A stretch of 64,000 nt of DNA from Candidatus Pacearchaeota archaeon (GTDB lineage Archaea > Nanobdellota > Nanobdellia > Pacearchaeales > GW2011-AR1), in the NCBI GenBank assembly GCA_018303825.1, contig JAGVXK010000020.1, positions 1 to 64,000 on the forward strand. Direction: 5' to 3'. The notes beneath the pieces were generated by a model. It was not told the DNA's origin and searched no databases. It saw nothing but the letters and a program-made list of their open reading frames with translations. Shown piece by piece: positions 3,058 through 63,828 of this stretch. A program made the translations under genes and the position numbers. Positions within the stretch are counted from its first letter, which is position 1, and the number at the start of each line of letters is the position of its first letter.

Positions 3058-6000
3058 TTGAGTATGGATAAGGAAAGTGCCAAAATAAAAATACTTGAAA
3101 AAATCCAGATATTTAGAGAACATTTAGAACAATATAAACTGAACTCTTATAAAGAGGATAGATTAAAAACTGAATTTATAGAAGAATTTTTTTTGGCTCT
3201 CGGATGGGATATAACAAATAAACAGGGATTACCAGAACAATACAAAGAAGTTATAAAAGAGGATGAATTAAAAGATGATTTTGGAACAAAAGAACCTGAT
3301 TATGCTTTTAGACTTTTTGGTAAAAAACATTTTCTTGTGGAAGTTAAAAGACCTTCGGTAAATATAGATAAAAAGTTAGCTCCAGCATTACAATTAAGAA
3401 GATATGGTTGGAACGCTGAAATATCAATAGGAATATTAACTGATTTTGAACAATTTTCAGTTTATGATTGCAGAATTAAACCTAAAGAAACAGACAAACC
3501 AGATGTTGCAAGGATAATAAATCTTACTTTTGAAGATTATGAAAAAAGATTTGATGAAATTTATGACACTTTTTCTAAAGAAGCTGTAAGCAAGGGTAGA
3601 TTTGATAAATTCGTTTTTTCAAACAAAGATAAGAGGGGAACTTCTGAGGTTAGTAATGAATTTTTAAAAGAAATTGAAAGATGGAGAGATAATTTAGCAA
3701 AGAATATAGCTCTGAGAAATACAAAAATAACTATAAATGAGCTAAATTATGCTGTTCAAAAGATTATAGATAGAATTCTCTTCTTGATTATATGTGAATA
3801 TAAAAGTATAGAAAAATATGGAAAACTAAATGAAATATCTAAAAAATTAGATATATACAAAAATCTTATACCCTATTTCAAAGAAGCAGATGATAAATAT
3901 AATAGTGGTATTTTTGATTTTGCGAAAGATAAACTAACTCCCGACTTACTAATTGACGATAAAATATTAAAAGAAATTATTAACAATCTTTACTATCCTA
4001 AATCACCTTATGATTTTTCAGTTTTACCTATAGAGATTTTAGGTAAAGTGTATGAGAGATTTCTAGGGAAAACAATTAGACTAACTATTTCTCATCAGGC
4101 AAAAGTAGAAGAAAAGCCAGAGGTAAGAAAAGCAGGTGGAGTTTATTACACCCCAGAATTCATAGTTGATTACATAGTCGAGAACACAATCGGGAGAATA
4201 ATCAAAGGCAAAACACCTAAACAGATAGAAGGCATAAAAGTTTTGGATTCGGCTTGTGGTTCTGGAACTTTCCTAGTCAGAGCATATACTTATATTCTGA
4301 ATTATCTATTAGAGTACTACAAGAAAAATCCATTAAAATATAAAAAAGAAATTTATCAAGTAAAAGAAGGAGTCTGGTTTTTGACAACTGAAATAAGAAA
4401 GAATGTTTTATTAAACAACATATATGGTGTTGATATTGATGCACAGGCAGTAGAAGTAACGAAGTTAAGTCTTTTATTGAAAGTTCTTGAAAATGAAACA
4501 AAAGAATCAGTTAATCAACAATTAAAGTTATTTAAAGAAAGAGCCCTGCCAAATTTAGATAATAACATCAGATGCGGTAATTCTGTGGTTGACTCTTCCT
4601 ACCTTGAGCAAAAAAAATTAGATGAATCCCTGGAAGAGTTAAGTAAGATTAATCCTTTTGATTGGGAAAAAGCATTTCCTTTCAAGTTTGATGTCATTAT
4701 AGGAAACCCACCATATGTTAAAGAATATACTAACAGAGAAATCTTTGAACCAGTCAAGAAAACAAATATGAATAAATATTACCAAGGAAAAATGGACTTT
4801 TGGTATTTGTTCACTTGCAAGGCATTAGATTTACTTAAGGAAGGGGGGCTTCATAGCTATATAGCCCAAAATAATTGGGTAACAAGTGCAGGGGCTTCTA
4901 TTTTAAGGAATAAAATATTATCTGATTCTAAGATAATTTCTTTCTTTGATTTTAATGAATTTAAAGTATTCAAAGAAGCAAGTATTCAAACGATGGTATT
5001 TATATTAGAAAAGGAAAAGGTTAGCCGTGGTTATTCTATCGATTATTATAAAATTATAAATGAAGATATTTCAAAAGAAGAGTTAGCTAATTATCTGATA
5101 ACTAAGAAAGATGGAGAAAAGATACAGAAGTTTAAGGCAAAGATTAATCCTCTTGAACTAAAAGATAAATTGATTGGTTTTACTAATAACCAGATTGGAG
5201 AGATATTAGAAAAAATAAAACTAAAAGGAAATTATTATTTAACAAAAGACAATGTTGCACAAGGCATTGTTTGTCCGCAAGAGTTTGTTATAGAATCCCA
5301 TATTAAAAAATTAGGAGATTCTGTTAAGAGGGGAGAAGGAATTTTTACTCTGAAAACCGAAGAGCTTAATAAATTAAAACTAACAAAAGAAGAAAAAAAA
5401 GTAATTGAGCCCTTTTATACCTCGGAGCAATTGTTTAAATATTCTGGAAAACCAGAGAATAAATTATGGATTATTTATTCTGATATGAATATAAGAAAAA
5501 ATATTAAAGAATACCCTCATATAAAAGAACATCTTGACAGATTCAAAGAAGTTATAACCTCGGACTTTGCTCCTTATGGATTACATAGGGCAAGAGATAA
5601 AAGTTTCTTTGAAGGAGAGAGAATAATATCTTTGAGAAAAACAGATGTTCCTTATTTTACATATGTCAATTTTCCTTGCTATGTTTCCCAAACATATTTT
5701 ATCATAAAACCAAATAATATAAACTTAAAATATCTCACAGGATTATTAAATTCAAGGCTAATTAATTTTTGGCTTTATCATAAGGGTAAAAGGCAAGGGG
5801 AACAATTACAAATAGATAAGGAACCATTATTAGATATTCCATTAATCAATTTAGAAAATAGGGAGATTATTGAATCAGTAGATTCAATAATAGGATTAAA
5901 CAAACAATTAGAGAGTCTTAATTTAGAAAAGGAGAGAGAATTAATAAAAAAACAGGTTGATGTTTTAGTAAAAAGAATTGATAATGTTGTTTATGATTTA

Positions 6001-6063
6001 TACAAAATAAGTAAAGAGGAAAAAGACATTATAGAGGAAGGTTTAGGTCAGTCCTCTTCTTAA
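3058..6063 (+). CDS. Type IIG restriction-modification enzyme (fused endonuclease, N6-adenine methyltransferase and TRD)
   Basis: PDY...EVK nuclease motif, VLDSACGSGTF (motif I), NPPY (motif IV), TaqI_C-like C-terminus. Confidence 0.9.
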   Translation: MSMDKESAKIKILEKIQIFREHLEQYKLNSYKEDRLKTEFIEEFFLALGWDITNKQGLPEQYKEVIKEDELKDDFGTKEPDYAFRLFGKKHFLVEVKRPSVNIDKKLAPALQLRRYGWNAEISIGILTDFEQFSVYDCRIKPKETDKPDVARIINLTFEDYEKRFDEIYDTFSKEAVSKGRFDKFVFSNKDKRGTSEVSNEFLKEIERWRDNLAKNIALRNTKITINELNYAVQKIIDRILFLIICEYKSIEKYGKLNEISKKLDIYKNLIPYFKEADDKYNSGIFDFAKDKLTPDLLIDDKILKEIINNLYYPKSPYDFSVLPIEILGKVYERFLGKTIRLTISHQAKVEEKPEVRKAGGVYYTPEFIVDYIVENTIGRIIKGKTPKQIEGIKVLDSACGSGTFLVRAYTYILNYLLEYYKKNPLKYKKEIYQVKEGVWFLTTEIRKNVLLNNIYGVDIDAQAVEVTKLSLLLKVLENETKESVNQQLKLFKERALPNLDNNIRCGNSVVDSSYLEQKKLDESLEELSKINPFDWEKAFPFKFDVIIGNPPYVKEYTNREIFEPVKKTNMNKYYQGKMDFWYLFTCKALDLLKEGGLHSYIAQNNWVTSAGASILRNKILSDSKIISFFDFNEFKVFKEASIQTMVFILEKEKVSRGYSIDYYKIINEDISKEELANYLITKKDGEKIQKFKAKINPLELKDKLIGFTNNQIGEILEKIKLKGNYYLTKDNVAQGIVCPQEFVIESHIKKLGDSVKRGEGIFTLKTEELNKLKLTKEEKKVIEPFYTSEQLFKYSGKPENKLWIIYSDMNIRKNIKEYPHIKEHLDRFKEVITSDFAPYGLHRARDKSFFEGERIISLRKTDVPYFTYVNFPCYVSQTYFIIKPNNINLKYLTGLLNSRLINFWLYHKGKRQGEQLQIDKEPLLDIPLINLENREIIESVDSIIGLNKQLESLNLEKERELIKKQVDVLVKRIDNVVYDLYKISKEEKDIIEEGLGQSSS

Positions 6064-6276
6064 CTTATTCATATTAACCTTGCAATAAGTCCTATTACCT
6101 TTTGTTTTACAATCTAAATAACCTAATTTAGAAAGCTTTTCGACATGCTTTTGAGCAGTTACTGGGTGTATTCCTATCGTTTTAGCTATCTTAGAGGGAG
6201 TACTTGCTAATTTATTATCTCTGATGCTTTTTATTATATCTCTGTCAATTGGATGGAATTTTACTTTGTTTTTCAT
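6043..6276 (-). CDS. Winged-helix HTH transcriptional regulator
   Basis: TPSKIAKTIGIHPVTAQKHVEKLSKLGYL HTH plus wing. Confidence 0.75.
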   Translation of the reverse strand: MKNKVKFHPIDRDIIKSIRDNKLASTPSKIAKTIGIHPVTAQKHVEKLSKLGYLDCKTKGNRTYCKVNMNKLRRGLT

Positions 6277-6503
6277 TTTATTTTCTTTAGTTTAATTGAA
6301 TATTCTTTGATATTATCTAATGGGACATTGAAAGTAATTGTATCCCCCTTCTCTATGTTTAATGCCTCGGCTATCTGTGAGGGTATTTGTATTATTAATT
6401 GTCTGCCAGTATCTTGCACTTTTACTTCTCTAATCAAGGTTTTAGGTTCTTCTACTTTAGGGGTAAGTGTATCTTCCTCTCCTCTTTTAAGCGATTTCTG
6501 CAT
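6273..6503 (-). CDS. AbrB/MazE/SpoVT-family DNA-binding protein
   Basis: RQLIIQIPSQIAEALNIEKGDTITF swapped-hairpin signature. Confidence 0.8.
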   Translation of the reverse strand: MQKSLKRGEEDTLTPKVEEPKTLIREVKVQDTGRQLIIQIPSQIAEALNIEKGDTITFNVPLDNIKEYSIKLKKIK

Positions 6504-6594
6504 AATTTATCTAAGTATTACCAATATATAAATTTATCTTTTTTTAATATTACTAAATTTCTATTTTAGAAAGGTATATATAGTAATGAATATG

Positions 6595-6606
6595 AGTAAT
6601 ATTACT
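6595..6606. promoter_or_regulatory. 12-bp palindrome AGTAATATTACT, putative operator
   Basis: Perfect palindrome between the divergent AbrB and transposase genes; partial half-sites at ~6514, 6546 and 6582. Confidence 0.4.
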
Positions 6607-6690
6607 ATATTTCATAGGAAATGTAGAATGTTAGATTATGGCTAACTTTGGCTTAGTTATGGGATAAGCCCATCATATTCAGGAGGAAAC

Positions 6691-7644
6691 ATGGAACAAA
6701 TACCAATACAAAGGCAAAAGATAGTCTATATTGAAAAGAAAGACTATTTAGAACTAGAGAAAAAGAACTTTCTTATAGTCTTGACTGATTTCTTTGAAAG
6801 AACTGATGAAAAGAAGGTTTCGGGTAATGGAAGACCTCCAATTTACTTCAAAGATATGCTCAAATCTTTATTAATCATGGCTTATCATGGAATGAGTTAT
6901 AGAAGATGCAGAAGTGATTTAGAATTAGCAAAGGAGATGGGAATTCTGTATGCTGCGCCTAAAAGAAGCACTCTTTGTAAATATATGAATGAAAAGAGCA
7001 TTAAGGAGCAATTAGTTGATTTAATTCAACAATCTGCTATCTATTTTATTAGTTCTGAAAGTTCTATGATTGTAGATTCTACTTGGTATCCATTAAAGTC
7101 TTGTCATACAGGTTATTTGAAAAAGCCTAATTTCAAGAAGAATAAATCAAAAGAAATACCTCCTCTGTTAAAAACTCGCAAATTGCATGTTGCCCTATTG
7201 AAAAACTCCAGAATAATAGCTTATGCCACAACAAGCAAAGGCACTAAAAATGATTCTCCGTTATTCAAAGAAATTTTGACAAAAGTTATTAATAATGGAT
7301 TCGATATTAAAGTTTTATTGGCAGATGCAGGTTATATGTCAAAATCTAATTATTCCTTTGCTCAAGAGAAAGGAGTAGATAACATATTTATTGACTTTAG
7401 GAAGAATGTAACTGGAAAAAGAGCCAAAAGCAAGGCTTGGAAAGATGCATTTTATCTATGGAAGAAAGATAATGAATATTGGCATGAAAGTTATAGATAC
7501 AGAGTAATCATAGAAGGATTCTTTTCTTTGCTTAAAAAGAAGTTTATGAATTGGTTAAGAACAAGAAAGGCAATTTCAAGAGACAATGAAATGTTATTGA
7601 AAGTTCTGGCTTATAATCTTACTATTCTAGGAAAACGTATCTAA
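6691..7644 (+). CDS. DDE transposase (IS4/IS5-like)
   Basis: IVDSTW, LLADAGY, YRYRVIIEGFFSLLK (YREK-like) motifs. Confidence 0.85.
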   Translation: MEQIPIQRQKIVYIEKKDYLELEKKNFLIVLTDFFERTDEKKVSGNGRPPIYFKDMLKSLLIMAYHGMSYRRCRSDLELAKEMGILYAAPKRSTLCKYMNEKSIKEQLVDLIQQSAIYFISSESSMIVDSTWYPLKSCHTGYLKKPNFKKNKSKEIPPLLKTRKLHVALLKNSRIIAYATTSKGTKNDSPLFKEILTKVINNGFDIKVLLADAGYMSKSNYSFAQEKGVDNIFIDFRKNVTGKRAKSKAWKDAFYLWKKDNEYWHESYRYRVIIEGFFSLLKKKFMNWLRTRKAISRDNEMLLKVLAYNLTILGKRI

Positions 7645-54010: not shown

Positions 54011-54598
54011 TTATTTCTGCAGGGCCATTCTTTGCGGATGACTCTTTTGTTTTTCTAATTTTGCCACATGCTTTTGCTCTTTGGCTTTTGCCTCAAATTC
54101 TTTGCTTCTCTGCTCTGCTGTTGCTGTCTCTTTTTCCTTTTCATCTTTCTTCTGCTCTTCAGTCTTTCCTTCCTGTGCTGCTGGAACTTCCCTCTTTTTT
54201 TCTTTCTTATCTTCCTTTGCCTCTTCCTTCTTTTCAAATCTCTTCAATAATTTCTCATGCTTTGCTTTCAAAAATTTGACATGTGCTGGAAAATCAACTA
54301 ATTCAACTCTTACTATGTTATCCTCTTTTACTGCTCTTACTTTTACTTTTGCTGGAGGATTTGCTCTTCCTCTGAACCAAAGTTCATTGTTTGAATATAC
54401 ATCCAACCTGACATTATTTACATCTCTATCAAGCACTTTCATGTGCTTGGCAATGAACTTCTTTATGGCTTTTATTGCCTTGCCAGTTCTCTCATACATT
54501 GGAGCTTTAAGCCACTCTTTTCTCAATGGAATTATATATTCTCTTTCCAGCTTTTTCGTTTCTGCTTTTGGTGTTTTTGTTTCTGCCATTTTATACAA
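54011..54598 (-). CDS. rpl31e: Ribosomal protein L31e with long charged tail
   Basis: EREYIIPLR, AIKAIKKFIAKHMK, LWFRG..NPP. Confidence 0.92.
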   Translation of the reverse strand: MYKMAETKTPKAETKKLEREYIIPLRKEWLKAPMYERTGKAIKAIKKFIAKHMKVLDRDVNNVRLDVYSNNELWFRGRANPPAKVKVRAVKEDNIVRVELVDFPAHVKFLKAKHEKLLKRFEKKEEAKEDKKEKKREVPAAQEGKTEEQKKDEKEKETATAEQRSKEFEAKAKEQKHVAKLEKQKSHPQRMALQK

Positions 54599-54860
54599 CC
54601 TCTGCTTCTAGCAAATCGATACCTATAATTCTTTTAATCCCTGCTAGGATGCTAGTTAAATCCTTTTCTGGAGCGATTATTTCGACTTTTGGTTTTTCAG
54701 TCTTTTGCAATATTAATCTTGCATTTTCATAGTTAAAAACAGCAGACATTCTATCGTATGAGATAGCAGTAGGATTTAGAACCCTGCCAACTACCCGATA
54801 AAATCTATCATATATTGTCTTGCTCAAGTTTATTGTCGTTACGTTTATTGTGTTTTTCAT
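54591..54860 (-). CDS. Hypothetical protein between rpl39e and rpl31e
   Basis: Abuts or overlaps both neighbours on the same strand. Confidence 0.5.
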   Translation of the reverse strand: MKNTINVTTINLSKTIYDRFYRVVGRVLNPTAISYDRMSAVFNYENARLILQKTEKPKVEIIAPEKDLTSILAGIKRIIGIDLLEAEVV

Positions 54861-56791: not shown

Positions 56792-56950
56792 GCGTTATAG
56801 TCAATTTATCTTCATGTCACCACTGCTTCACGTATGTTGCAGTTGAATTTTATGGCTTAAAATAAACCTAAATATGCGCTAATAAACTAACTTGTAGTTC
56901 TGGTGCTACCAGAACCAATTTGATAAGAAATAAGGATTTTATAAATCTGA

Positions 56951-57778
56951 TTACTTTTTAAAGAAATCAGCAACCTTTCTCAGTGAAGCTGTGCCTCTCT
57001 TACCTTCAATAACACCATCTATTATAGTTAAATATTGTTTTGCCTGTCTCGGAGTATAACCACGAACTTTTGGCTCGTTAATTTGGCGCGAAGTGCCTTC
57101 GGCACTTTCCACAGAAACCCCAAAGACAGAGCCATAATCATCGCTCAGGCTCCTGTCGTTGCAGATGAAGGCAGACCTGTAGTTCCTGTCAAGCCCGTCC
57201 AACCAGTGTCCTCTTGCATAATCTTCCCCAGTTATTCTTGGCAAATAAACAGTAACTTCTGGCAATCTCAAATTCTCTGGCAATTCATTTCTTAAAAATA
57301 ATCCATATCTATTAGCTAATTCTGGACTTTCAGCTTTCCATCTTATTGTTGGATCATCAGCAAAACTATCTGTTGGAACTGGATGAGTTTTAGCCTGTCC
57401 AAGATTCAAAACCCTTTTTTGTTCTAAAGGTTTTATTTCATCTTTTTCAGCTATCTGCCTAAGTACTTGAGTAAATGGTCTCTTGCCTTTTCTTATTTCA
57501 TCAGTTAAATAAAATTCGCCTGTTCTCTGAGCTTCTACAGCTTGTTTTGCATAGGGAATAAGCGGATTAAATTCTGCTCTTGCCAGCAATATTGCTCCAT
57601 CAACAACATTAGAATCTTCTGCTGTCCAAGCTCCTCCTTCAAAATGTGTTTGATCATTAACTCCTCTTTCTAATCTATCTTCAATAAGTTCTCTTCCTGT
57701 AGAAACACGCTTATTTGCATTCTTAGCTTGTGCTAAACAATATGCCCAATTTCCTTGGTCAATTCTTTGTAATTTCAT
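56951..57778 (-). CDS. DGR target (variable) protein, probable C-type-lectin fold
   Basis: Contains the VR HWLDGLDRNYRSAFICNDRSLSDDYGSVFGV; no signal peptide or TM seen. Confidence 0.9.
   Translation of the reverse strand: MKLQRIDQGNWAYCLAQAKNANKRVSTGRELIEDRLERGVNDQTHFEGGAWTAEDSNVVDGAILLARAEFNPLIPYAKQAVEAQRTGEFYLTDEIRKGKRPFTQVLRQIAEKDEIKPLEQKRVLNLGQAKTHPVPTDSFADDPTIRWKAESPELANRYGLFLRNELPENLRLPEVTVYLPRITGEDYARGHWLDGLDRNYRSAFICNDRSLSDDYGSVFGVSVESAEGTSRQINEPKVRGYTPRQAKQYLTIIDGVIEGKRGTASLRKVADFFKK
57091..57107 (-). promoter_or_regulatory. DGR target-recognition hairpin AAGTGCC-GAA-GGCACTT
   Basis: Perfect 7-bp stem with GRA loop, 8 nt downstream of the VR. Confidence 0.85.
57116..57206 (-). repeat. 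DGR variable repeat (VR), 91 nt
   Basis: 77/91 identical to the TR; all 14 differences are at TR adenines. Confidence 0.95.
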
Positions 57779-59752: not shown

Positions 59753-60472
59753 CTAATTAGCCCTTAATTTTGCCAGAGCTTCATTTTGAATTTGCCTAAT
59801 CCTTTCTCTAGTCACATGGTAGATTTTTCCAATTTCTTCAAGTGTTTTTTTCTTCCCATTTAGTCTAAGAAATCTTAGCTCCAAAACCTTTCTTTGTTGG
59901 GGGTTCAATTTTTTAAGAAGATTATGCACAAAAGCAGAATCAGATCTTTCACATATATCATCGTAGGGCATTCTTGCGTGAATATCTGTTATTAATGTCT
60001 CCATTGACTCCCCATCATCGCCGGTTGGTTCATCTATGGAAACAAATGTAACTGGTCCGTCTTTTGGATGATATTTTGCCAGATATCTTCTTCTTTCTTT
60101 TTTCAATGCATTAAGAATATTTTTTCTTACATAATACCTTGCATAGGTACTCAATTTTGCTTTTTTCTTATTGTATGGATTATACCTATCAATTCCTTCC
60201 ATTAATCCTTGATTGCCCTCGCTTATTAAGTCCAATAGTGGAACCCCTCTATAGGTATATTTTTTAGCGACATTCACAACAAGCTTCAAATTGCGATTAA
60301 TTAATTCTCTTCTCGCATTTCTGTTCCCCCTCATCTTTTTTACAGCGAGTGCAAATTCTTCCTCTCTTGTTAAAAGAGGCCCAGATATCTGGGAAAGATA
60401 GACATCTAATCCATCATATGCCCTAGACCTTCTTGCTCCATCATATAATATTTTTGACATAAAAATTGACAA
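59753..60472 (-). CDS. Bacterial-type sigma-70 family factor (ATG at 60460 likely start)
   Basis: Region 1.2 YLSQI..LLTREEE, region 2 NLKLVVNVAKKY/DLISEGNQGL/STYA, region 4 TLEEIG...TRERIRQI. Confidence 0.9.
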   Translation of the reverse strand: MSIFMSKILYDGARRSRAYDGLDVYLSQISGPLLTREEEFALAVKKMRGNRNARRELINRNLKLVVNVAKKYTYRGVPLLDLISEGNQGLMEGIDRYNPYNKKKAKLSTYARYYVRKNILNALKKERRRYLAKYHPKDGPVTFVSIDEPTGDDGESMETLITDIHARMPYDDICERSDSAFVHNLLKKLNPQQRKVLELRFLRLNGKKKTLEEIGKIYHVTRERIRQIQNEALAKLRAN

Positions 60473-60541: not shown

Positions 60542-61282
60542 TTATGCAATTGAGGGTTTGCGGGTTATCGAAGCATTGTCAAATAACCTCTTGCCGATAA
60601 TAGAAAAGTCCAGGACTCCATTGTCGCGAGCATTTTCGAAAACTAAACCATAGGCATGCATTCTGTCTATTGCCAAGCCAAATCTCACTATTCTGTCAAA
60701 ATCTTCTACATAAGATCTGCTTAAATAAATTGGATTGATTTTCAGAGGAGTTGAAATAAATTTGCTTAAATCTCTGGAAACATAATCACTTCCCGGATGG
60801 TCTTTACAATCAGATGGAATCAGAAGAACTGATGCCCTCCAGGGACTTTCTCTAAATTCTCTTTTTGCCTGTTCCTCAGATGCAATTTTTCGAAATGGGG
60901 CAACTTTTTCAGCAAGGAATTTTTTATATTCTTCGAACAAAATATCTGTATTTCTTGCTGCTCTGACAAATAATGGAACGATTGGGACTGAAACTCTTCT
61001 TATTATTTCTTTAGTTAAATTTCTTTTATCATAGGGGTAAGTCACCTCATTAATCTGCATTGCCCATTCAGAGATGCCATACTCATTAATTCCTTCAATA
61101 GGTTCTAATTCTAAAAGTAATTCATCTGCCCTTTCAACTTTCTTTGCTCCAACAAGCTTATCATACTGTGTTGGGATAATTCTCAGATATAACGAATCAG
61201 AAATCTTTGGGAGCTTGCCAAACCTTCTGTTGTATGCTGCTCTTGCTTTTTTTAGAATATATTCCAACATTTCCATTACCAT
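60542..61282 (-). CDS. Hypothetical protein
   Basis: 246-aa ORF with TATA. Confidence 0.6.
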   Translation of the reverse strand: MVMEMLEYILKKARAAYNRRFGKLPKISDSLYLRIIPTQYDKLVGAKKVERADELLLELEPIEGINEYGISEWAMQINEVTYPYDKRNLTKEIIRRVSVPIVPLFVRAARNTDILFEEYKKFLAEKVAPFRKIASEEQAKREFRESPWRASVLLIPSDCKDHPGSDYVSRDLSKFISTPLKINPIYLSRSYVEDFDRIVRFGLAIDRMHAYGLVFENARDNGVLDFSIIGKRLFDNASITRKPSIA

Positions 61283-61329: not shown

Positions 61330-62490
61330 CTACCCGCACAGACTAAATTTATCTGATGTTAACCTGATCAAATCACTGTCAAGAATTTTCTTTCTATCGT
61401 CGGCAAAAGCTTTGAATTTAATGAAAAGAGATTCAAATTCATCCTCCCTGAAAGAATATCCTAATTGTTTATACTTTGTTCTAAGAGCATTTCTTCCTGA
61501 TCTTGGACCAAAGGTTTGAATGCTTTCATAGCCAAACATTTTTGGTTCAAATATCTCATATGTATTCCTGTCTTTCAACATCCCATCCTGATGAATACCG
61601 GCTTCATGGGCAAATGCATTCTTTCCTACTATGGCTTTATTATCTTGGGGGTAATGGCCTGTGAATTGAGAGCACATCTCGCTTGTTTCTTTGATAAACT
61701 CTGTTTTTATTCCAGAATAGCCGACATTTTTCAAAATCATTGCTGCAACAATTTCCTCCAAAGCTGTATTTCCTGCCCTTTCTCCTATTCCATTTATAGT
61801 AACCTCTGCTTGTCTGGCTCCTGCAAGAATTCCCATCAGAGTATTCGCTGTAGCCATTCCAAGATCATTATGATTATGAATGGAAAAAATTGCGTCTAAA
61901 CCAGAGTTTCTTACATTATCAATTACATATTTTATTTTTTCATATGATTCTAAAGGAGCAAGGCAGCCGACAGTATCTGGAAGATTAATAGTTGTTGCGC
62001 CCTCCTCTATTGCCGCTCTAACAACTTGAACAACATAATTTAAATCAGATCTTGAAAAATCTTCGCATGAGAATTCTACATCATAAACATAAGATTTCGC
62101 TTTTCTAACTGCATTTCTGGCTTTTTCTATAACCCATCCATTAGTTTTCTTGAATTTTCCACTTATGTGGATGTCGCTTGTTGCAATGAATGTATGAATC
62201 CTTTGATTTTTTGCATTTTCAATGGCTTTTGCTGCTAATTCTATATCTCCCTCTACAGCTCTCGCCAATGAGCATATTACAACATCTTCTTGCCCAAATT
62301 CCTTGGATATTTGTTTTATTGATTCGAAATCTCCGCATGAAGAAACTGCAAAACCGGCTTCTATTACATCAACTCCCAGCTTGTGAAGCTGCTTTGCCAG
62401 AGCTAGCTTTTCATTTCTAAGGAAATGAAACCCTGGGGCTTGATCCCCGTCCCTTAATGTTGTATCGAATATAGTTATTTTATTTGTCAT
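61330..62490 (-). CDS. leuA: 2-isopropylmalate synthase-family enzyme without the C-terminal regulatory domain
   Basis: FDTTLRDG.Q, HNHNDLGMATAN, NGIGERAGN, AHEAGIHQDG; GAGGT SD before ATG 62490. Confidence 0.88.
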   Translation of the reverse strand: MTNKITIFDTTLRDGDQAPGFHFLRNEKLALAKQLHKLGVDVIEAGFAVSSCGDFESIKQISKEFGQEDVVICSLARAVEGDIELAAKAIENAKNQRIHTFIATSDIHISGKFKKTNGWVIEKARNAVRKAKSYVYDVEFSCEDFSRSDLNYVVQVVRAAIEEGATTINLPDTVGCLAPLESYEKIKYVIDNVRNSGLDAIFSIHNHNDLGMATANTLMGILAGARQAEVTINGIGERAGNTALEEIVAAMILKNVGYSGIKTEFIKETSEMCSQFTGHYPQDNKAIVGKNAFAHEAGIHQDGMLKDRNTYEIFEPKMFGYESIQTFGPRSGRNALRTKYKQLGYSFREDEFESLFIKFKAFADDRKKILDSDLIRLTSDKFSLCG

Positions 62491-62563
62491 AGAAACCTCT
62501 AAAGATTTATGATGTAGTGAAATCAAACTAAAAATAAACTGAAAGCAAACTAGAAGCTTAATT

Positions 62564-62629
62564 TCACAAAAGTAAGAGCAGCAAAGCTAAAGAACTTGTT
62601 CCACTGAAGGATTTATCTGCACTTTGCAT
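62564..62629 (-). CDS. Putative Leu-rich leader peptide (leuL-like), 21 aa
   Basis: MQSADKSFSGTSSLALLLLLL*; TTG CTG CTC TTA CTT TTG; TTTAAATA box 21 nt upstream; 73 nt before leuA. Confidence 0.7.
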   Translation of the reverse strand: MQSADKSFSGTSSLALLLLLL

Positions 62630-62724
62630 TTCTTTTAAAGAACTGGAATCTATTTAAATTTTTGCTTTTCACAGTTTATCTTCAGTACAATAAATGTTAT
62701 ATACTTCTTCCAGAACTTAATTTA

Positions 62725-62820
62725 ATGAAAAAAGTCAAAGCAGGAATACTTGGAGCAACTGGAGCAGCCAGAGGAGCAATCCTAACTGCTGAACTACTTC
62801 ATCACAAAGGCCTTTTGTAA
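62725..62820 (+). pseudogene. asd: Aspartate-semialdehyde dehydrogenase remnant (internal deletion)
   Basis: MKKVKAGILGATG (Asd-like N-terminus) fused to AARGAILTAELLHHKGLL (Asd-like C-terminus). Confidence 0.6.
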
Positions 62821-62837
62821 TTAATTCAATTATTCTT

Positions 62838-63620
62838 TTGTTTCTACCTTTTAACAAATGGTTTTATAAAGATTTGATTTTATATATAGAAATGAGAGAG
62901 GTTGAATTCAGGCCTTCGACTTTGGAAGAAAGAGAGGCGTTCTACAGGAAAGAATTCGATATAAACAAAGTTAAGAGATGGTTTAAGAAAAATGGGATGA
63001 AACTTCCCCAGATATGCGCTCTTGACGCCGGGACGGATACTGGAATAATAAAAAATCCCAAACTAAAAGGTGAAATGATTTACTTTCTGTTCTCTGAGCT
63101 GAAAGGGAAGATAAAAGAATATGTTCCAGAAGATGTTTATTATGATAGGGGAAGATACAAGCATGCCTGGCAGAAGCTCAGACATTTAAACAAAAAAAGC
63201 TGGACAGAACAAGAGATAGTATTTGATGTAGACAGCGACAATATCTCTAAATGCGACAAATTAAATGGAAGATGCCTGTCGACAGCATATAGTTATGCAA
63301 AAAATATGAAGAATGCACTAAAAAAATATTTCAAGGAAATGAAAATGGTTTATTCCGGGAGGGGATTCCATATCCATATTTTGGATAAGAAGGCGTATAT
63401 GATGAACAAGCATGAAAGGAAAGAATTCACCGCTAAATTCAGGAGATTTCCAATAGATCTATGGGTTTCGCAGGGAAATATAGAATTGATACGACTTCCG
63501 TACTCTCTTAACTCATTAGTTTCGAGAAAAGTTACGCCGATAAATAAAAAATTCAGGGCAAAAGAAGCAATCCCTGATTTTTTAAAGAAAAATTATCTTC
63601 TCTTTCTTTTCTTAGCGTAG
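62838..63620 (+). CDS. priS: DNA primase small subunit (AEP superfamily; likely start ~62892)
   Basis: VFDVDSD, YSGRGFHIH, IRLPYSLN. Confidence 0.85.
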   Translation: MFLPFNKWFYKDLILYIEMREVEFRPSTLEEREAFYRKEFDINKVKRWFKKNGMKLPQICALDAGTDTGIIKNPKLKGEMIYFLFSELKGKIKEYVPEDVYYDRGRYKHAWQKLRHLNKKSWTEQEIVFDVDSDNISKCDKLNGRCLSTAYSYAKNMKNALKKYFKEMKMVYSGRGFHIHILDKKAYMMNKHERKEFTAKFRRFPIDLWVSQGNIELIRLPYSLNSLVSRKVTPINKKFRAKEAIPDFLKKNYLLFLFLA

Positions 63621-63730
63621 TATTTTTTCTTCTTGGAATAATACTTTTTCTTTTTAGAGTAGTATTTCTTCTTCTTGCTCGAGACTCTCTTCGTCCTTTT
63701 AGAAACTTTTCCGCGCGCTTTTTTTGACAT
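63593..63730 (-). CDS. 45-aa ultra-basic peptide with (KKKKYY[S/A])3 (not in ORF track)
   Basis: GAGGTG SD and upstream TATA; 26/45 residues K/R, no acidic residues. Confidence 0.7.
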   Translation of the reverse strand: MSKKARGKVSKRTKRVSSKKKKYYSKKKKYYSKKKKYYAKKRKRR

Positions 63731-63828
63731 TTTTACCACCTCTTTTCAATTTTTGCAAACATTTTTTGATATTACTATCAGGACAAACTAGTATTTAAAA
63801 TTATTGCAAAAAATAAAAAATAATTTAA

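Follow-up and report, generated by a model that had tools for sequence, protein, structure and literature searches.

The window analysed here comprises bases 1–64,000 of contig C20, one of the 23 contigs of an 806-kb genome assembly that is 85.7% complete. On its minus strand, a short upstream open reading frame (uORF) of 21 codons precedes a gene for a protein of the 2-isopropylmalate synthase (IPMS) type, to which we refer as the leuA-like gene; this uORF, a candidate leader peptide, is the subject of the present work. The genome has a GC content of about 34% and encodes TBP (TATA-binding protein) and an archaeal primase subunit, and close homologues of its proteins are labelled Nanoarchaeota, Pacearchaeota or Woesearchaeota archaeon: the host of the leader is a small DPANN archaeon. 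The locus consists of the following features.

62651–62658, minus strand: TATA box TTTAAATA of the leader transcript (read directly).
62564–62629, minus strand: leaderless 21-codon uORF (putative leader peptide), with its ATG at 62629 and the stop codon TGA at 62566–62564.
62567–62584, minus strand: run of six Leu codons adjoining the stop codon (TTG CTG CTC TTA CTT TTG, five codon types).
62517–62567, minus strand: hairpin H1 with a 13-bp outer stem (minimum free energy (MFE) and centroid folds agree).
62530–62538, minus strand: U-rich tract TTTATTTTT, between the arms of H1 (read directly).
62487–62512, minus strand: hairpin H2 (MFE fold), which pairs part of the Shine-Dalgarno (SD) sequence (AGGU) and the AUG of the leuA-like gene.
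62495–62499, minus strand: SD-like GAGGT, 4 nt upstream of the main ATG.
61330–62490, minus strand: leuA-like gene, 386 aa, 2-isopropylmalate-synthase-type, without LeuA_dimer (Pfam, NCBIfam and structure match).

An original prediction, made from the letters of the window, had read most of this layout correctly. The TATA box TTTAAATA stands exactly 21 nt before the uORF ATG at 62629, the uORF closes with six Leu codons of five types (62584–62567), and the U-rich tract, the GAGGT and the leuA-like gene succeed one another downstream. It had also held that no coding sequence on the opposite strand accounts for the Leu run, and we found no plus-strand open reading frame (ORF) of at least 20 aa that overlaps the uORF. 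Leu makes up seven of the final eight residues of the peptide, which from codons 14–15 on reads L-A-L6 (62590–62567), and a gap of 73 nt separates the uORF stop from the ATG of the leuA-like gene. A chance origin of the run is very unlikely, since runs of at least six Leu codons occur only 20 times in the whole 806-kb genome, all six frames included, which corresponds to an expectation of about 0.002 for a same-strand leader of 140 nt. With 10 codons, the genome's longest Leu-codon run (54325–54354, plus-strand frame) falls within the overlapping ORFs 54011–54598 (minus strand) and 54081–54611 (plus strand), in a frame that lies opposite another long ORF.

A spacing of exactly 21 nt between TATA box and ATG is found at 99 long ORFs of the genome, neighbouring distances being represented by at most seven ORFs each: this spacing is the genome's sharp signature of leaderless starts. 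Starts of the leaderless type were counted at 118 genes and starts of the SD type at 129, and only five genes have both. The uORF has a leaderless-type start and the leuA-like gene an SD-type start, with no TATA box at 21 nt in front of it, which marks the latter as an internal cistron because the two types of start are nearly exclusive here. The uORF thus resembles the opening cistron of a leaderless mRNA, in which the leuA-like gene would form an SD-led internal cistron. The 21-nt spacing recurs at 13 of 19 Leu leaders and 10 of 15 Ile leaders of related archaea, described below. TATA-preceded small ORFs stand upstream of genes at 65 places in the genome; only the Leu leader and an Ile leader end in a run of a single amino acid, and the genome-wide scan of such small ORFs yielded no further cognate-run leader.

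The enzyme served as the query for a search of 401 genomes of the same order; 35 of them have a homologue, and the regions upstream were scanned for uORFs. Among the 22 LeuA-type loci of this order-level set (enzyme at least 39% identical to that of the window), 19 have an ATG-initiated uORF with a Leu-rich terminal run, usually 17–26 codons in length, with the consensus tail S-L-A-L-L-L-L-L-stop and mostly 34–49 nt between its stop and the main ATG. At the three loci without one, the enzyme gene lies directly behind another gene or has a TATA box positioned for itself. The closest metagenomic homologues (70, 68 and 61% identity) carry the leader in three instances out of three. The class-level set consists of 401 genomes sampled across the phylum, every match outside the own family being listed as of the same class; here, a Leu or Leu+Val leader precedes 11 of the 12 LeuA-type loci, and an additional clade also has Leu leaders. 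The search for Leu-run uORFs upstream of homologous leuA genes, which had been proposed as a check along with the prediction, thus came out in its favour. The leader uORFs are without annotation in every contig examined, so that gene callers systematically miss them. Over the 19 Leu leaders, 60% of the last eight residues are Leu; all six Leu codons occur in the Leu leaders and all three Ile codons in the Ile leaders, and, therefore, what is conserved is the amino acid (hence the charging state that would be sensed), and not a nucleotide word.

The genome contains a second HMGL-type gene (contig C4, 4249–5868, 539 aa), the best match of which is citramalate synthase (TIGR00977) and in which LeuA_dimer is present. 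This CimA-like gene is preceded by a 22-codon uORF, with Ile as five of its final six codons. At the order level, an Ile-run uORF was found at 15 of 16 CimA-like loci (tail consensus S-I-I-A-I-I-I-stop; gap of 27–39 nt), and 12 class-level CimA-like loci have a clear Ile leader. The two types of leader differ in the composition of their tails as follows.

Leu leaders: 152 residues counted (last eight per leader), with 91 Leu and 22 Ile.
Ile leaders: 120 residues counted (last eight per leader), with 2 Leu and 79 Ile.

In one larger relative, a leader with a Leu+Val tail heads an operon leuA (with LeuA_dimer)-ilvB-ilvN-leuC-leuD, and in four larger genomes of the class (1.3–2.1 Mb), leuC lies 3–5 kb downstream of leuA on the same strand. 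As judged from these gene orders, the device heads genuine branched-chain amino-acid operons in archaea, and the window's copy would be the form that a reduced genome has retained. No such uORF was seen at five loci of a third paralogue clade in the order, nor at three class-level loci in which the paralogue follows a small Cys-rich LysW-like ORF; the latter paralogues are, as read by eye, most likely homocitrate synthases. The genome's only gene for isoleucyl-tRNA synthetase (IleRS; TIGR00392, 780 bits) starts 25 nt after the CimA-like gene, and an IleRS gene lies behind the CimA-like gene in all five loci examined (the own one and four others). Likewise, in two genomes of a sister family, a gene for a bacterial-type leucyl-tRNA synthetase (LeuRS; TIGR00396, 629–647 bits) directly follows the LeuA-like gene. 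The three other class-I synthetase genes of the genome that were found with the IleRS query have no leader. The claim of a leader peptide in an archaeon is borne out to the extent that a uORF with a run of the cognate amino acid is conserved, its Ile and Leu+Val versions tracking the matching genes.

No obvious hairpin had been seen in the original prediction. Folding places the 13-bp H1 (62567–62517) right at the stop: it opens with the final base of the terminal Leu codon and takes in the stop codon, with TTTATTTTT inside it. Of 34 order-level leaders, 33 have a first hairpin that starts between −3 and +4 nt relative to the stop; across relatives, its position is conserved and its sequence is not. 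The 36 nt from the stop onwards have a mean MFE of −8.5 kcal/mol in leaders, as against −1.9 kcal/mol at 660 ordinary gene stops of the genome (p = 7e-18), and a hairpin was scored there in 74% of the order-level leaders and 82% of the class-wide leaders, compared with 3.8% of ordinary gene stops (an enrichment of about 20-fold) and 7.1% of random small-frame stops. The stop-adjacent hairpin is the most conserved RNA feature of the leaders. In the Ile class, the stem (GCAA...TTGC) shows compensatory changes, one pair occurring as GC (6), UA (3), CG (2) and AU (1). The covariation score, from a tightened alignment with stated structure, is 0.41 versus 0.19 in shuffles (0 of 500 reach 0.41), and at most 0.07 with the partners slid. 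RNAalifold on a plain MAFFT alignment of the Ile leaders, where the arms are out of register, predicted nothing, and a covariance model of the Ile-class hairpin (28 positions), too short to be informative, had no match in the own genome, training copy included.

The 3′ arm of the hairpin holds the SD sequence in five Leu leaders and, in four loci, includes the AUG of a second mini-ORF that finishes at the main ATG; in most Ile leaders, it ends 6–13 nt before the main AUG, beside an SD-like purine stretch. The MFE structure at the locus of the window comprises H1 and H2, with the U-tract inside H1, while most relatives have one hairpin followed by a gap of 27–47 nt. Rfam searches of the leader, at the gathering threshold and at E ≤ 10, returned nothing relevant, including no Leu-leader match. 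Second mini-ORFs between the hairpin and the enzyme gene, with a stop that abuts or overlaps the main ATG, were seen in many relatives' leaders (L033, L034, L038, L030, L067, L084, L091); they look like termination-reinitiation relays.

The leuA-like protein matches the Pfam families HMGL-like (PF00682, 4e-86) and HCS_D2 (PF22617). Its score with NCBIfam NF002086, of which positions 4–384 out of 516 are matched, is 521.5 bits and stays below the cut-off of 532 because the C-terminal part is missing. It is about 55% identical to Campylobacter LeuA, its closest solved structure is that of Neisseria IPMS (3RMJ, 7e-102), and the DTTLRDG, HxH and ERAGN motifs are kept; fold and motifs identify it as a putative bona fide IPMS-type protein. 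LeuA_dimer (PF08502) was not found in it by Pfam, so the allosteric domain is lacking, as had been proposed; close homologues come in a long form (about 505–530 aa, with PF08502) and a short form (378–395 aa). The accompanying idea that the leader compensates for the feedback inhibition lost with this domain has no support, since full-length homologues that keep LeuA_dimer carry the same leader.

The assignment of the enzyme to leucine synthesis stands in part. The IPMS fold and motifs speak for it, as does the occurrence of the leader before leu/ilv operons in larger relatives, but no leuB, leuC, leuD or ilvE was found in this genome at its 85.7% completeness (PF00180 Iso_dh, PF00330 Aconitase, PF00694 Aconitase_C and PF01063 class-IV aminotransferase), and, therefore, the enzyme appears as an orphan here. 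None of 61 relatives yielded a match to Aconitase_C (PF00694), and no LeuA- or CimA-bearing relative among those 61 yielded one to Iso_dh. In a 100%-complete genome of 1.0 Mb, the leader is present and aconitase was not found. A 246-aa ORF (60542–61282, minus strand), possibly co-transcribed, begins 48 nt past the leuA-like stop; it has no Pfam or NCBIfam match, and no counterpart adjoins the homologues examined. In a close metagenomic relative, the leuA-like gene is followed by a gene of the ADP-forming acetyl-CoA synthetase type (CoA_binding/Succ_CoA_lig; 5746–7044 of its contig), which may point to acetyl-CoA turnover, and not leucine synthesis, as the connection.

We consider it likely that the uORF encodes a leucine-sensing leader peptide that acts in cis. 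The transcript would start at the uORF's own AUG, without a leader sequence, and the leuA-like gene would be its SD-led second cistron, the two being presumably co-transcribed. A ribosome on the six terminal Leu codons would report the supply of charged tRNA-Leu, and its dwell time at the end of the uORF would act on the stop-adjacent hairpin, by which the expression of the downstream gene is set; shortage of Leu would be expected to raise it. While the anatomy, the conservation and the match between leader and gene can be read from the genomes, the step that is controlled we infer. Granted an amino-acid-sensing leader, we give translational attenuation about an even chance of being the mechanism. 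A ribosome held at the last codons or at the stop would keep the 5′ arm of the hairpin unwound, and the downstream initiation signals would be exposed. We favour this mechanism because the Leu codons reach right up to the stop, the leading edge of a stalled ribosome touches the hairpin and the 3′ arm carries or abuts start signals, and because the nearest experimentally studied analogue, the mycobacterial poly-Cys ORFs, works at translation. Two further candidates were rejected: frameshifting or readthrough into the main ORF, since the gap lengths fall in all three frames, and mimicry of a tRNA anticodon by the hairpin loop, since the loops are not conserved.

Several results weigh against leucine-responsive control of translation at this locus. 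No further genes of the leucine pathway were found in the genome, which clouds the physiological sense of control by leucine. The 73-nt gap includes a TATA-like T-tract, 38 nt upstream of the leuA-like ATG, which could serve as a promoter of the gene's own; the U-tract TTTATTTTT might itself be a weak TATA-like element of internal position. Neither SD nor AUG lies in the 3′ arm of H1 at this locus, and the fold of the whole leader surpasses shuffles by a modest margin only (z = −1.84). When the footprint of a ribosome was masked at several stall positions in partition-function folds, the accessibility of the main start did not rise systematically: it went from 0.50 to 0.51 in the Leu class, stayed at 0.40 at the locus of the window, and gave p about 0.6–0.7 in the class-wide set. 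Only in the Ile class was there a slight increase (0.47 to 0.58), and the pairing probability of H2 was unchanged; a simple occlusion switch is, therefore, not reproduced by folding. Moreover, melting of the hairpin fits the geometry loosely, since a ribosome with the last Leu codon in the A site reaches the first base pairs only. A trp-like scheme, with the hairpin as an antiterminator-like region 2:3, did no better on the same masked-fold numbers.

The same sensor could control termination of transcription instead: the lead ribosome would decide whether the stop-adjacent hairpin forms behind the RNA polymerase, and the state of the hairpin would decide whether oligo-U is exposed to intrinsic or factor-dependent (aCPSF1/FttA-type) termination before leuA. 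We regard this as unlikely. Oligo-T tracts are established as intrinsic terminators in archaea, where transcription and translation are coupled, and at the locus of the window, TTTATTTTT lies 26–34 nt after the stop. Of 65 leaders, 29% have a T-run of at least five (T5) no more than 32 nt from the stop, compared with 10% in shuffles (maximum 23% in 500), an enrichment of about 3-fold; these runs gather at +9 to +17, for the most part in the loop of the hairpin. The U-tract is not conserved, however, as 71% of the leaders are without a T5 run, the closest relatives among them, and at this locus, it lies inside the hairpin; control over an oligo-U terminator, as suggested in the original prediction, is not supported on these grounds, although the T5 enrichment lends it some weight. 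There is no room for a terminator in most Ile leaders, with their 6–13 nt from hairpin to AUG, or in the five Leu leaders with the SD in the 3′ arm. In its simplest form, in which the polymerase runs ahead of a stalled ribosome and terminates, the coupling would moreover regulate biosynthetic operons, such as leuA-ilvBN-leuCD, in the wrong direction. That operon also speaks against a positive translational coupling, in which the hairpin would block independent initiation at leuA, and only ribosomes that complete the uORF would open it and re-initiate. Expression would then fall when leucine is scarce, a growth-rate or supply gate for the orphan enzyme and, in relatives, for the cognate synthetase. 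The run flush with the stop and a hairpin that a ribosome stalled early in the run just fails to reach are compatible with such coupling; the second mini-ORFs ending at the main ATG point to termination-reinitiation relays in the family, and no downstream pathway for the enzyme was found here. The same architecture nonetheless heads the complete leuA-ilvBN-leuCD operon, for which shut-off during Leu or Val shortage would be maladaptive, and, to our knowledge, all characterised cognate-run leaders, which are bacterial, derepress on starvation. We deem positive coupling quite improbable.

That the uORF yields a hydrophobic micro-protein in its own right, or is a chance ORF or a relic in decay that regulates nothing in this genome, is very improbable indeed. 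Its hydrophobic tail could sit in the membrane, and the pathway to be regulated was not found here. A membrane tail would, however, leave unexplained why Leu, Ile or Leu+Val track the downstream gene and why a hairpin is fixed to the stop codon; genomes with an orphan enzyme, one of them 100% complete, keep intact leaders, and the chance expectation given above is small. A last, bolder reading has two parts, either of which could hold alone, and we advance it tentatively, as unlikely on balance. In the one part, the hairpin next to the stop would form, with its U-rich loop, an archaeon-specific attenuator: the position of the ribosome would hide U-rich nascent RNA from, or expose it to, the archaeal termination machinery (intrinsic oligo-U or aCPSF1/FttA), which, if true, would be the archaeal counterpart of Rho-dependent attenuation. 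In the other part, orphan LeuA-like and CimA-like enzymes would be kept under cognate leaders, in operons with leuS or ileS, in genomes unable to make leucine or isoleucine; this new role of the enzymes, tied to tRNA charging, might be in sensing or in metabolite exchange with a host rather than in biosynthesis.

Other features were noted in the window and elsewhere in the genome. In the same intergenic region, on the opposite strand, lies a TATA-preceded, Gly/Ala-rich ORF of 31 codons (62725–62820, plus strand; it begins MKKVKAG), which ends 17 nt before a divergent gene for a PriS-like primase (62838–63620) and is maybe another leaderless upstream mini-gene. A second family of TATA-preceded mini-ORFs, with near-identical peptides M-K-x-K-M-T-F-K-K-A-H-G-K..., occurs upstream of three different genes of the genome (C4:1302–1358, C18:35022–35075, and the minus strand of C22, scan coordinates 61031–61081). 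A 48-codon ORF (63593–63739, minus strand) with GAGGTGG in front is extremely rich in Lys, Arg and Tyr, with a repeated KKKKYYSK-like unit, and might encode a small, basic protein that binds nucleic acid. A bacterial-type sigma-70 family protein (regions 1.2, 2 and 4 by Pfam; RpoS/RpoD-like by NCBIfam) is encoded at 59753–60472 (minus strand), two genes downstream from the leuA-like gene, and a second match to sigma-70 region 4 is present at C13:69385–69531. Further downstream, 56792–56914 (minus strand) matches the Rfam RNA RT-16 (78.5 bits; gathering threshold 50) and adjoins a 275-aa ORF (56951–57778, minus strand) without a Pfam match.

Ribosome-mediated attenuation is a textbook mechanism of bacteria, and full-text literature searches for leader-peptide attenuation in archaea returned bacterial work only, with no archaeal example. 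With the attenuators leuL, ilvL/ivbL, trpL and hisL, the leaders described here share a short ORF rich in the end-product amino acid before biosynthetic genes, and the Leu+Val leader has its likeness in the multivalent bacterial ilv leaders, which also stand before mixed operons. The helix of trpL region 2 begins a few nt after the stop codon of the leader ORF; an RNA helix at this place is common to trpL and the archaeal leaders. They differ in that the regulatory codons, 10–20 nt upstream of the stop in bacterial attenuators, abut the stop here, and in that gaps of 27–47 nt are too short for the four regions of a bacterial attenuator. The modelled folds, moreover, do not appear to include a mutually exclusive terminator/antiterminator set with a U-run, no Rfam Leu-leader match was obtained, and the archaeal polymerase and its termination rules differ from those of bacteria.

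In cat-86, cmlA and ermC, which are translational attenuators induced by drugs, a single stem-loop beside the leader ORF hides the initiation signals of the following cistron until a ribosome that stalls in the leader sets them free. Archaeal leaders with an SD or AUG inside the 3′ arm (nine relatives) match this layout, and H2 pairs SD and AUG at the locus of the window. In the drug-inducible leaders, the stall is caused by drug and nascent peptide; in the archaeal ones, it would be caused by a hungry codon, and the occlusion switch is not reproduced by folding at this locus. Leaders before synthetase genes are known from pheM-pheST of E. coli and have been predicted for actinobacterial leuS and trpS, as leader-peptide attenuators (PMC1262725). 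Cognate leaders stand before synthetase genes in relatives of the window's genome too, in the order Ile leader-cimA-like-ileS and Leu leader-leuA-like-leuS; no synthetase follows in the window, and in the relatives, the orphan condensing enzyme sits between leader and synthetase.

The closest parallel is offered by the leaderless poly-Cys short ORFs of mycobacteria, cysteine-responsive attenuators whose control was shown to be exerted on translation, not on termination (Canestrari et al., bioRxiv 10.1101/834739). They have in common with the present leader a leaderless first cistron, a run of cognate codons and the next gene of the operon downstream, which in mycobacteria is the controlled gene. 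The mycobacterial system is bacterial and experimentally shown; the candidate described here comes from an archaeon and differs by its TATA promoter, by a run that meets the stop codon directly and by a hairpin anchored there. The leader family is a testable handle on how translation feeds back on gene expression in archaea and on how synthetase and branched-chain amino-acid genes are regulated there, and it bears on why genome-reduced symbionts retain lone first-step enzymes of pathways that are otherwise lost. Very probably, these leaders make up a family of ribosome-read amino-acid gauges across a DPANN class, in three cognate flavours (Leu, Leu+Val and Ile). Its principle is known from bacteria; what is new is its occurrence in an archaeon, in a leaderless layout, with the run set against the stop, a hairpin anchored to that stop, and orphan enzymes and synthetases as its partners.

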